A program made the position numbers and the translations under genes. This document shows, piece by piece, positions 7,909-61,610 of a stretch of 64,000 bases of DNA. Positions within the stretch are counted from its first letter, which is position 1; each line of letters begins with the position of its first letter. Below the pieces are notes generated by a model. The model saw nothing but the letters and a program-made list of their open reading frames with translations, made no database searches and was not told the origin of the DNA. This DNA comes from a virus. The stretch lies in IMG/VR virus record IMGVR_UViG_3300017917_001903, positions 1-64,000 of that record; one strand, given 5' to 3'.

Positions 7909-7985
7909 TGGTGTCAGAAGGTGGACTCGAACCACCGACCTCTCCCTTATCAGGGGAGTGCTCTAACCAACTGAGCTATACTGAC
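7909..7985 (-). tRNA. tRNA-Ile(GAT)
   Basis: cloverleaf, encoded CCA. Confidence 0.95.
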
Positions 7986-55899: not shown

Positions 55900-56057
55900 T
55901 GTGTTTCCTTCCTGCTAGTGTTTATATACACTATTTATGAAAAGAAACACCAAAAATAAGTACTCGGTTTATCTCCGTCCGGTCGACACGGACTTGATCC
56001 TACTCATTGCCATCGCTGTGCGACAAACCTTACACCGAAAGGTAGGGCGGCAAATTC

Positions 56058-56824: not shown

Positions 56825-57000
56825 TACAAGTGCGATTTTTTCTGTTGCTAGGAAAAATCGCAAACCCCGGAGAATTACGCTGCTAGAGCGTAATCACCAT
56901 ATGCAAAGTCATTATCGTTTGCAGTTACTTTTTTTGGCACTTTGCCAGTCAATCAGTCTCGGCATTCCTATTCCGCGTCAATCGATCCTATTTCAGGCCC
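56825..57000 (-). ncRNA. ssrA: two-piece tmRNA, coding piece; tag ANDNDFAYGDYALAA (56875-56922)
   Basis: GGGCCTGAAATAGGATCGA 5' end; tag frame ending LAA-TAA. Confidence 0.9.
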
Positions 57001-57001
57001 A

Positions 57002-57202
57002 TCATAAAAAAACTGCTGCTAGCGCAAGAAAAATAGCAAATGCAAGTAATGCTCTACCCCAATACTCTTGGTCGCTTTCATTGGGAATACTGCGACCATA
57101 ATATTTGTCTACTATCTTGTGCCATTCTGCTAATTCCTTGTCCGAGAGTGTCCCAGGAAAGTGATAGCCTCTCCAATATAAACGATTCTCTTCCTCAGTC
57201 AT
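57002..57202 (-). CDS. 66-aa membrane-anchored protein in the tmRNA intervening segment
   Basis: AAGGA RBS, ATG, C-terminal hydrophobic helix; fills the spacer. Confidence 0.7.
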   Translation of the reverse strand: MTEEENRLYWRGYHFPGTLSDKELAEWHKIVDKYYGRSIPNESDQEYWGRALLAFAIFLALAAVFL

Positions 57203-57215
57203 AGCAATTTCCTTA

Positions 57216-57280
57216 TGGTGGACCTGCCCGGTACTGCCCCGGGGTCTTGCCGCTTTTATTGTCAGCTGTCAACAACTGAT
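57216..57280 (-). ncRNA. ssrA: two-piece tmRNA, acceptor piece
   Basis: CCCGG-GGCAGTA-CCGGG T arm, CAGGTCC-ACCA pairing with GGGCCTG (G3:U70); 5' end approximate. Confidence 0.9.
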
Positions 57281-57900
57281 GTATTATTTAGTATTGTAAT
57301 TACGTCCTCAGCAAATTTATAGTGTGCAAGTTTTCCAGGATGCTCATTGTCTAACGCTGGAGAAAAATTAAGTGATATATCATTCATAAACACTTTTTCT
57401 ATTTTAGCTGTAGACCAACTAAATTTAACTATCATTCTCTTAGAAACTAAAAAGTGTAAAACTTTAATACCACGTTTTTTAAAATGTAAATCAGCATACT
57501 CAATTCTAGTATAAAGGTCAACGTTGGCATCATAGTCATCATATAGTGTATAAAAATGTTTAGTCGCTGGATCATCTGAATCAGCAGGAATGAAACGTTT
57601 AAATTTATTGGTAATGTGTGCATCTGCAGATTGTACAATGCAGGATCGTTCAGGGTACGTCCAAAGTATAACCACAATGTCATCATCTTGAAAAGCAAAG
57701 TTTTGTATCTTAAAAAGTATCTCTTTATTACTTGCGCCCGGAAAACTTGTGTTTATACATTCTCTTTTAAGATGCTTTGCAACCATAGCTGGCCAAGCAA
57801 ACGAACTAGGTTTACTAAGAGGCTTTTTTGCAACATGATCCCAACAGTCTGGTAAGCCGTGACCATATGTTAGACTGCATCCAAAGGTAATTAATCTCAT
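57262..57900 (-). CDS. SGNH-like protein
   Basis: FGCSLT, PGASN, DNEHP. Confidence 0.75.
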   Translation of the reverse strand: MRLITFGCSLTYGHGLPDCWDHVAKKPLSKPSSFAWPAMVAKHLKRECINTSFPGASNKEILFKIQNFAFQDDDIVVILWTYPERSCIVQSADAHITNKFKRFIPADSDDPATKHFYTLYDDYDANVDLYTRIEYADLHFKKRGIKVLHFLVSKRMIVKFSWSTAKIEKVFMNDISLNFSPALDNEHPGKLAHYKFAEDVITILNNTSVVDS

Positions 57901-59789: not shown

Positions 59790-59872
59790 TGGTGCCCCAG
59801 GAGGGACTCGAACCCCCACCCTTTCGGAGCGGATTTTGAGTCCGCTGCGTCTACCAATTTCACCACTGGGGC
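59790..59872 (-). tRNA. tRNA-Leu(CAA)
   Basis: cloverleaf, encoded CCA. Confidence 0.95.
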
Positions 59873-59964
59873 TGGTACCTCGGGCCGGAGTCGAACCGAC
59901 ATTGGCCAATTATCTGTTGCACACGGGATATAAATCCGCTGTTTTACCGTTAAACTACCGAGGC
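59873..59964 (-). tRNA. atypical tRNA-Ile(TAT) with extra arm
   Basis: normal acceptor, D and T arms; TTTATAT loop; 22-nt extra arm. Confidence 0.7.
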
Positions 59965-60054: not shown

Positions 60055-60549
<495 letters not shown>

Positions 60550-60584: not shown

Positions 60585-61610
60585 CTAGAAATCAAATCTA
60601 TATAAATTACACGGTTCTAAATTATTATCAATTATCAATTTCTGGGCTTGATCAAGAATTTTAGAAATTTTACCTTTTTGGTGATCACCAGAAGTTTTAG
60701 TAGCTATGTTTTTAGCCCATGGTTGCGATAATATCAGATCATACAAAGGATGTCTATATAGCTTATCAAATTGATTGTAAATACCAGTTTCCTGTGCAAG
60801 CATCTTTTTAACTGTTTCAAACCCTGTTGCTTTATATAATGGCGGCATTAACTTAGCGCCTAACAGACTATAGTAATGTTGCTTGTATAGGTAGTTTGAA
60901 TCCTGATATGAGCTCAGTTCTGCAAAATAGGTATTGCACTGCTGAATTACATCTAAATTAAACTTTAGCGAAAGATAGTTAGTATATTGATCCATCTTAA
61001 ATGGATCCTTAATCACTGGTATATTACTTTCGACAGCAAAGTTGTAAAAAGCACATAAATTATTAACTATAAATCCTTTGTGAGAATTTACCAAAGACAT
61101 ACTGTTTTTAGCCAAGTCATATTTAACAATTGTAGGGTCACCTCCCAAGATGCACACATTGTTAGCAGCGAGTTCTAGCATCTTAATTTGTGCTGTAATT
61201 TGAGGGCTCCCTGTGCGGTATTTCAAACCAATGCTAACATATTCCTCGCTTTCAAACAGTTCTTTAAGATCAAGCACAAACATACGATATGTGAGATCGT
61301 TTAAATTAGCATATCGCTGAGCAGCCAAAACGTCGTGGGCATTTACAGTAACATCGCCCCAACGCATGTCACAGATAACTGTATCAATGCTGACCTTTAA
61401 TGTCTTTAAAAGATGTAGAGAAAATTGACTATCTAAACCCCCGCTTAAAAACAGTTGGCATTCTTTAATATTCTTGAACTTTTCAGCCCAAATATCATAC
61501 AGTGTTATATTGTTACCCGGGTCTGCATAAAAGGATACTACGCTTGTTGTTGAGTAATCTACTTGTATTGCAGCCGGATCACCAATTTGTAAGATATTGT
61601 TAGACATCAA
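60585..61610 (-). CDS. PP-loop (adenine nucleotide alpha hydrolase-like) protein
   Basis: LFLSGGLDS. Confidence 0.65.
   Translation of the reverse strand: MMSNNILQIGDPAAIQVDYSTTSVVSFYADPGNNITLYDIWAEKFKNIKECQLFLSGGLDSQFSLHLLKTLKVSIDTVICDMRWGDVTVNAHDVLAAQRYANLNDLTYRMFVLDLKELFESEEYVSIGLKYRTGSPQITAQIKMLELAANNVCILGGDPTIVKYDLAKNSMSLVNSHKGFIVNNLCAFYNFAVESNIPVIKDPFKMDQYTNYLSLKFNLDVIQQCNTYFAELSSYQDSNYLYKQHYYSLLGAKLMPPLYKATGFETVKKMLAQETGIYNQFDKLYRHPLYDLILSQPWAKNIATKTSGDHQKGKISKILDQAQKLIIDNNLEPCNLYRFDF

Follow-up and report, generated by a model that had tools for sequence, protein, structure and literature searches.

The window, by which we mean the whole 64,000-nt stretch of viral DNA that was analysed, belongs to a virus record of 86.9 kb with an estimated completeness of 25%, which suggests a jumbo phage of ~350 kb; the DNA data set that matches it best is a pond metagenome. 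The window contains 32 tRNA genes and a tmRNA gene, all encoded on the minus strand. One of the tRNA genes, at positions 59873–59964, was called as tRNA-Ile(tat) by ARAGORN, comprised 92 nt including the encoded CCA and scored 52.1 bits against Rfam RF00005, for which the gathering score is 29. The features of this gene, and of the tRNA genes that bear on its interpretation, are listed below.

7909–7985, minus strand: ordinary tRNA-Ile(GAU) with the anticodon loop CUGAUAA (ARAGORN).
59790–59872, minus strand: tRNA-Leu(CAA), abutting the CCA of the tRNA(UAU) gene with zero spacer (59872/59873; ARAGORN, Rfam).
59873–59964, minus strand: tRNA(UAU) gene (ARAGORN; RF00005; cloverleaf covariation in 72 homologues).
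59901–59903, minus strand: 3′ linker AAU ahead of the T stem (sequence and alignment of 72 homologues).
59904–59922, minus strand: extra arm with the 7-nt loop CAGAUAA at 59916–59910 (sequence, covariation, loop base frequencies).
59923–59939, minus strand: decoding anticodon arm GCGGA-UUUAUAU-CCCGU (sequence; pairs 28-42, 29-41 and 30-40 covary in the family).
60078–60156, minus strand: tRNA with the anticodon CAU, 113 nt upstream of the tRNA(UAU) gene (ARAGORN, Rfam).

Read on the minus strand, the 5′ part of the tRNA(UAU) gene (GCCUCGG UA GUUU AACGGUA AAAC A) and its 3′ end (GUCGG UUCGACU CCGGC CCGAGGU A CCA) form a 7-bp acceptor stem (GCCUCGG/CCGAGGU) with a G1·U72 pair, a D arm (GUUU-AACGGUA-AAAC) made of a 4-bp stem and a 7-nt loop with GG and followed by A26, and a T arm (GUCGG-UUCGACU-CCGGC) with a 5-bp stem, with A73 preceding the CCA. 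The features of an elongator tRNA, namely U8, G18G19, a T loop of the form UUCRANY, U33 and R37, are all present, and the body is of class I type with 7/5 acceptor/T geometry. The decoding anticodon UAU (59932–59930) occupies a canonical 7-nt loop, UUUAUAU, in which U33 and A37 are kept. The sequence at 59873–59964 is a genuine tRNA gene of isoleucine type with the anticodon for the rare codon AUA, a codon found at 13.5 per 1000 in the ORFs of the phage. The determinants that point to isoleucine include A73, invariant in the family, and U12-A23, which is the family majority and is present in the window gene; C4-G69 is also the family majority (47/72), with U-A in the window gene. Against an isoleucine identity, the pair C29-G41 is mostly G-C in arm-bearing tRNA(UAU). 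The tRNA may thus be charged with isoleucine by IleRS and may read AUA.

Two pairs of the body deserve mention. The loop-closing pair 31/39 of the decoding arm (59935 and 59927) is an A·C mismatch, which is A·C throughout the window subfamily, A·A in the homologue from the cultured Stenotrophomonas phage DLP_6 and C·C in Lysobacterales; a 31·39 mismatch was present in 15/84 other long-armed tRNA(UAU) (within loci L213–L460) compared to 0/89 ordinary viral tRNA(UAU). The G1·U72 pair (59964 and 59877) occurs in ~40–50% of viral tRNA(UAU), ordinary and long-armed alike.

In phage DLP_6, a tRNA-Leu(CAA) also lies close to the homologous tRNA(UAU), 8 nt upstream of it. The tRNA(CAU) at 60078–60156, read by eye against E. 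coli tRNA-Ile2, is presumably Ile2-like and a candidate lysidine-dependent reader of AUA; its matches in cultured phages are annotated as tRNA-Ile or tRNA-Met. A dCMP-deaminase-like ORF (60055–60549, minus strand) has an open frame that continues through this tRNA(CAU), and upstream of the ORF, at 60585–61610 on the minus strand, a 341-aa orphan protein with the PP-loop motif SGGLDS is encoded. The latter, considered and set aside as a TilS-like enzyme, matched no sequence in Pfam, PHROG, NCBIfam or the PDB, and one distant homologue carries an asparagine-synthase domain (PF00733). No match to IleRS (PF00133) or TilS (PF01171) was detected in the 86.9-kb record, which is ~25% complete, so that their absence from the phage is not proven. 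The tmRNA at 56829–57315 (minus strand) is permuted and of the alphaproteobacterial type (RF01849, 85 bits; RF04321, 92 bits), with the tag ANDNDFAYGDYALAA, and a COG2908 RNA motif at 56008–56052 (minus strand, 70 bits) adjoins a tRNA-Thr.

The original prediction had described this gene as a tRNA-Ile(UAU) with a TTTATAT loop and a further CAA-CAGATAA-TTG hairpin, and ARAGORN, Rfam and the sequence itself place both elements exactly where it had them. The variable region that holds the hairpin is 22 nt long (GUG-CAA-CAGAUAA-UUG-GCCAAU, 59922–59901), and the GAU triplet (59914–59912) lies at the centre of the loop. The stem is longer than the 3 bp originally described and consists of six layers, G-C, U·C, G·G, C-G, A-U and A-U, of which the outermost is A-U or G-C in 57/57 distinct sequences of the window subfamily, around an invariant G·G. 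The last U of the 3′ linker can probably pair with A15 in a Levitt-type A15-U48 pair. A 3-bp hairpin alone could be due to chance, so the case against chance rests on the homologues.

Homologues proved plentiful. The arm design was detected in more than 250 viral contigs, in one cultured phage (DLP_6) and in a few bacteria. A pattern search of viral sequences that fixed the anticodon arm and the T loop and left 18–34 free bases between them returned at least 119 viral contigs, and among the matches listed all arms had the form G-C-N-N-[C/U]AGAU[A/U/G]A-N′-N′-G-G, with compensating changes in the stem. Covariation was analysed in an alignment of 72 distinct homologues from several subfamilies, in which 92.7% of the cells of the cloverleaf and arm were paired compared to 66.8% in shuffles, none of 500 shuffles reaching the observed value, and to 40–52% when the pairing partners were slid out of register. 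The 7-bp acceptor stem was 99.8% paired and the 5-bp T stem 100% paired. The three loop-proximal pairs of the arm had changed on both sides in 11, 36 and 39 of the 72 sequences, and the two pairs with 36 and 39 such changes were 100% paired. When stems were counted outward from the loop, at least 25 versions of 2–5 bp were found, all made of Watson-Crick or G-U pairs. These alignments show the arm to be a conserved RNA helix that holds GAU in its loop. Chance is not a sufficient explanation because the loop is conserved, the stem covaries and GAU is central in ~80/84 of the long-armed sequences described below, as opposed to 1/64 expected by chance. The original prediction had staked its proposal on conservation of the GAT loop, and this was clearly borne out, G34-A35-U36 being nearly invariant over many covarying stems.

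The association between the arm and the UAU anticodon was examined in two samples drawn from opposite directions. In sample (a), the pattern specified the arm loop and the T arm and left the anticodon unconstrained, and 58 new viral loci were collected. All 46 of the arm-bearing tRNA-like genes in this sample (46/46) had a UAU anticodon loop, about half of them having been missed by ARAGORN; the remainder comprised 3–4 tRNA-Ile(GAU) of ordinary length whose own anticodon loop was CAGAUWA, and sequences that were not tRNA or were ambiguous. In sample (b), CUUAUA, a long gap, the T loop, A73 and CCA were specified and the arm was left unconstrained. Of the 84 distinct tRNA-like sequences obtained, 81/84 contained a hairpin whose loop has 7 nt, and the loop was centred on GAU in ~80/84. 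Numbered as an anticodon loop, the arm loop of the 84 sequences had a pyrimidine at position 32 in 99%, and A in 84%, U in 9% and G in 6% at position 33. Positions 34–36 were G, A and U in 93–94% as picked automatically, or in ~95% once five mis-registered hairpins were read by eye. Position 37 was free (U 47%, A 31%, G 16%, C 6%), and position 38 was A in 79%. One long-armed tRNA(UAU) departed from the rule by having GAC in place of GAU at the centre of its arm loop (L224).

Bacteria gave the same picture. When the pattern of sample (a) was run over 185,579 species, each represented by a single genome, no more than seven real cases emerged, 7/7 with UAU; they lay in Vibrio albus, in three tRNA arrays of acidobacteria and in metagenome-assembled genomes of Lysobacterales. 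Among 301 genomes of the order to which the latter belong, a long-armed tRNA(UAU) was present in 7, with a CAGAUAA arm in 7/7. As a control, the 3,514 tRNAs in the viral loci were inspected for extra arms on other class-I isotypes, and ~40 such tRNAs were found (Thr, Gly, Met, Lys, Trp, Asn, Pro, Gln, Cys and Glu; for example in L027, L063, L098, L110, L135, L168 and L278), with tetraloops of the GNRA or UUCG type. Within this control the 7-nt GAU loop was specific to UAU tRNAs, barring a lone oddity, an 88-nt tRNA-Trp (CCA) with CAGAUAA in a 17-nt variable region and no clear stem (L154). Sequence comparison thus ties the GAU arm to the UAU anticodon in all the tRNA-context cases sampled, viral and bacterial. 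A nearly invariant GAU with this tie to UAU implies a reader that recognises the isoleucine anticodon specifically. Ordinary short tRNA(UAU) are also abundant among viral contigs (at least 119), and some adjoin an arm-bearing one, so the arm is not obligatory.

Arm-bearing tRNA(UAU) are easily passed over in annotation, since gene finders label them as plain tRNA-Ile, overlook them or miscall them. A blastn comparison of the window tRNA with cultured phages gave no match, nor did a relative of the L122 type; only an L129-type query matched a cultured phage, DLP_6 (vB_SmaS-DLP_6), whose copy (KU682439.2, 104738–104829) is annotated in GenBank as plain tRNA-Ile-TAT.

Several other ideas about the arm were considered and set aside. 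A38 of the decoding loop was found in 35% of arm-bearing compared to 57% of ordinary tRNA(UAU) (p = 0.004, a value not corrected for kinship); the idea that this determinant had been relocated to the arm was dropped, the difference being modest. Were both loops served by one reader, position 37 of the arm might be expected to follow that of the tRNA-Ile(GAU) encoded alongside; it does not, and CAGAUUA arms occur beside CUGAUAA tRNAs. A kissing interaction of the arm GAUA with U36-A37-U38-C39 of the decoding loop could form in the window gene, but the complementarity is missing in the L129 and DLP_6 subfamilies. Pairing of GAU with a T-box or with 16S rRNA was ruled out by the geometry and the A33 mismatch, on reasoning alone.

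Related subfamilies contain an additional element that bears on the fold. Where the linker between the two arms is 5 nt or longer, 34/44 sequences repeat the D-stem 3′ strand, together with one further nucleotide, immediately before the GAU arm, and the repeated strand can form 3–4 of the 4 possible pairs with the D-stem 5′ strand, as compared to 6/78 in shifted controls. The pairs (GCUU/AAGC, GCUG/CAGC, GCUC/GAGC) covary with the D-stem 5′ strand, and the carriers, with 5–7-nt linkers, include L122, L126–L128, L143, L181, L201, L341 and others. The duplicated strand fits an origin by tandem duplication running from the D-stem 3′ strand through the end of the anticodon arm, and it would make possible a second, equally good cloverleaf in which GAU is the anticodon. 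In the window subfamily the linker between the arms has only 3 nt and the D-stem strand is not repeated, and the strand-swap fold is for this reason closed to it. The suggestion in the original prediction that the RNA may switch folds thus gained sequence support in the related subfamilies and none in the subfamily to which the window gene belongs.

What might read the GAU arm is best approached from the way in which AUA is decoded. Bacteria tell AUA (Ile) from AUG (Met) by means of lysidine, and a plain UAU tRNA skips lysidine but serves IleRS poorly. IleRS reads G34, A35 and U36, with most activity lost in anticodon variants (PMC13752280), and is the only enzyme known to read the three nucleotides together (PMC9976931). 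The kcat/Km of the E. coli enzyme is 360 times higher for LAU than for UAU, and the IleRS of Mycoplasma mobile is adapted to UAU by Arg865 in place of a conserved Trp (PMC3575796). We regard it as a serious possibility, falling just short of an even chance, that the extra arm supplies the GAU that IleRS needs to charge the tRNA(UAU), a reading favoured because the ordinary enzyme charges UAU so much worse than LAU. In line with such a reading, a Lysobacterales genome with an arm-bearing tRNA(UAU) encodes an ordinary IleRS1 whose zinc-domain motif C-x-R-C-W keeps the Trp, not the Arg/Lys of the UAU-adapted Mycoplasma enzymes. The genome of Vibrio albus (G002), whose arm-bearing tRNA(UAU) is L190, matches ileS twice over its full length, at 984 and 957 bits, both above the cut-off for the family. 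Hairpins that mimic an anticodon arm outside the anticodon position of a tRNA do bind their synthetase, as at the thrS operator (PMC9976931).

The original prediction had proposed that one loop recruits IleRS while the other decodes AUA without TilS, and the mechanism that we envisage follows this line. An ordinary bacterial IleRS requires A35 and U36 accompanied by G or lysidine at position 34, and charges UAU poorly; the GAU arm would present these nucleotides to the host enzyme at its anticodon-binding domains, and the tRNA would thus obtain isoleucine without depending on TilS, after which the UAU arm, with U33 and A37 kept, would decode AUA on the ribosome. The pattern of conservation is in keeping with such a separation: the UAU arm retains the features required for decoding (5-bp stem, U33, A37), and the GAU arm retains those that a synthetase reads (G34, A35, U36 and mostly A38) while U33, in most sequences, and the purine at 37 are lost, which fits recognition over decoding. 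The independence from TilS is to be taken as a rationale only, as the phage also has the Ile2-like tRNA(CAU) 113 nt away.

Geometry is an obstacle to this proposal. In complexes of class I synthetases with tRNA the variable region faces the solvent, and the loop of a variable arm should miss the anticodon pocket, so that under standard class I docking the position of the GAU arm is a real difficulty for its reading by IleRS. Because the variable region faces away from the enzyme, the GAU arm would have to replace the anticodon arm during charging and occupy its position, be it through alternative coaxial stacking, a strand-swapped cloverleaf or non-standard docking. The complete division of labour, in which IleRS would read the GAU arm and the ribosome the UAU arm, the charging state being reached by re-stacking or, in the relatives with a duplicated D strand, by a swap into the second cloverleaf, is offered as a more tentative scheme, clearly short of an even chance. 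Two features of the loop also speak against reading by IleRS. Bacterial-type IleRS depends strongly on t6A37 (PMC9976931), whereas ~70% of the arms have U, G or C at position 37, and the conserved A33 has no explanation in IleRS recognition.

These same features suit a reader other than IleRS, which could be a tRNA-modifying or processing enzyme of phage or host that requires a loop resembling the Ile anticodon, or else an anticodon nuclease or toxin of the host against which the arm acts as a decoy or shield in anti-defence. The conserved loop, with A33 and any base at 37, departs from a working anticodon loop, and similar deviations are met in ordinary phage tRNA-Ile(GAU), whose non-U33 loops include CAGAUAA (L121, L137 and L160), CAGAUUA (within the set L121, L137, L160 and L164) and, in DLP_6, CCGAUUA (the tRNA-Ile(GAU) at L212 1661–1732). 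Changes in the anticodon loop reportedly allow phage tRNAs to evade anticodon nucleases, and the non-U33 loops of tRNA-Ile(GAU) may be of this type; extra arms are, moreover, frequent in phage tRNAs generally. On the other side, IleRS is the only enzyme or nuclease known to us to single out G34-A35-U36, a decoy need not ride on a UAU tRNA and yet the arm is found only there, and no conserved protein gene adjoins the tRNA, its neighbours being tRNAs, the dCMP-deaminase-like ORF and a 2OG-Fe(II) oxygenase-like ORF. On balance such a reader is unlikely, though it deserves to be kept in view.

The tandem duplication raises a further alternative, in which the arm is a relic of the duplicated tRNA-Ile anticodon arm, kept for folding or processing and with no sequence-specific job. 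The related subfamilies indeed retain the whole duplicated module, D-stem 3′ strand, N26 and anticodon arm (34/44 against 6/78 in the controls), and other class-I-isotype phage tRNAs bear extra arms that are purely structural. A relic loop would drift, however, and here G-A-U stays fixed while at least 25 stems vary and position 37 is free; the structural arms of the other isotypes also have tetraloops, not 7-nt loops. We consider an origin of this kind without a present function of the loop improbable.

Should either arm, through alternative stacking or folding, be able to act as the anticodon arm, a single tRNA could read AUU and AUC in addition to AUA. Some relatives come near to this: their arm has 5 bp, their 3′ linker of 5 nt resembles an ordinary variable loop, and the D-stem strand is duplicated. 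In a few, such as L263, the arm loop is identical to the canonical CUGAUAA, and there are ordinary phage tRNA-Ile(GAU) that have CAGAUAA as their anticodon loop. Against this, A33 in 84% of the arms and a pyrimidine at position 37 in about half of them are both bad for decoding, stems go down to 2–3 Watson-Crick pairs, a canonical tRNA-Ile(GAU) is already among the tRNAs of the phage and the window subfamily lacks the second D-stem strand. Double decoding therefore appears very unlikely.

Slightly less credit still is due to the view that the tRNA does not carry isoleucine at all, the long arm making it a substrate of LeuRS, SerRS or TyrRS and AUA being recoded. Besides the long variable arm, the tRNA has A73 and a possible A15-U48, both of which are among the features of E. 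coli tRNA-Leu. There are precedents as well, in the nev-tRNA(UAU) that takes leucine in vitro (PMC3333845) and in the allo-tRNAs, among which UAU is common (PMC5389517). The D arm is nevertheless of class I type (4-bp stem, 7-nt loop), unlike those of the Leu, Ser and Tyr tRNAs that the phage itself encodes, and the geometry is 7/5, not 8/4; A73 instead of G73 speaks against serine, and A35 against tyrosine. Charging of this kind would leave the conserved GAU loop without a reason, and the phage ORFs use AUA at a normal, isoleucine-like frequency.

Removal of the extra segment as an intron or otherwise, to leave an ordinary tRNA(UAU) of 70-odd nucleotides, had also been raised in the original prediction and is hardly credible. 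The insert does sit amid otherwise normal tRNA parts, but its 19–22 nt cannot accommodate a group I intron, inspection by eye revealed no bulge-helix-bulge motif, and the alpha-type tmRNA of the phage points to a bacterial host. If the 19-nt arm were excised, only 3 nt of variable loop would remain, and the conserved GAU would have no role. In four runs of assembled contigs with full-length armed relatives, no joint that skips the arm was present, which is not proof at the RNA level.

Of these explanations, reading of the GAU arm by IleRS is the likeliest, and its consequences would be considerable. If true, it would establish a new principle, by which synthetase and ribosome consult separate, uncoupled anticodons. 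On the more tentative scheme of a complete division of labour, a tRNA identity element would have shifted from the anticodon to a separate arm, and the molecule would be a natural fold-switching tRNA. The phage would gain a reader of AUA that does not wait on host TilS, and the finding would bear on the rules of tRNA identity and on the takeover of translation by phages, besides offering a ready-made design for orthogonal or recoding tRNAs. The design is frequent, being present in hundreds of viral contigs, in the cultured phage DLP_6, which has a culturable host, and in some bacterial chromosomes. A full-text search of the literature found no description of a GAU-loop arm on a tRNA(UAU), and as far as that search goes such tRNAs are undescribed.

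The nearest known counterpart in decoding is the TilS-independent tRNA-Ile2 of M. mobile (PMC3575796), which likewise uses UAU for AUA on a body of class I type with A73 and meets the same difficulty, UAU being a poor substrate for an ordinary IleRS. The two differ in where the remedy lies: in M. mobile it is on the side of the enzyme (Arg865) and the variable loop of the tRNA is short, whereas here a second, GAU arm is present on the tRNA itself, and the helical variable region of 22 nt departs from the 4–5-nt variable loop of a class I tRNA-Ile(UAU). A helical arm in the variable region is shared with class II tRNAs (Leu, Ser and Tyr), and a variable arm together with UAU is shared with the allo-tRNAs (PMC5389517) and the nematode nev-tRNA-Ile(UAU) (PMC3333845). 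All of these have class II D arms or 8/4 or 9/3 geometry, with short, non-conserved arm loops, and receive Ser or Leu through the shape of the arm; the window tRNA has 7/5 geometry, a class I D arm and a 7-nt, anticodon-like arm loop. It shows neither the marks of class II (a D arm with a 3-bp stem and a long loop, a Leu, Ser or Tyr anticodon, and G73 for Ser) nor the 8/4 or 9/3 geometry of allo-tRNAs, the acceptor stem having 7 bp and the T stem 5 bp in the homologues. The class I D arm and the 7/5 geometry thus put it outside the definitions of both groups.

A helix inserted in the variable region is also what the arm has in common with the phage class-I-isotype tRNAs with extra arms that stand beside it in tRNA arrays; the arms of those tRNAs are capped by GNRA or UUCG tetraloops and are without an anticodon-like sequence. 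The loop itself finds its closest likeness in the thrS operator of E. coli (PMC9976931), a hairpin with a 7-nt loop that contains the cognate anticodon, recognition by the identity rules being a property of thrS. The arm described here has the form of such an anticodon mimic, with a 7-nt loop and the anticodon at loop positions 3–5 (CAGAUAA). Mimics of the thrS type reside in mRNAs and regulate the translation of the synthetase, whereas the putative mimic in tRNA(UAU) lies inside a tRNA that has a different anticodon of its own.
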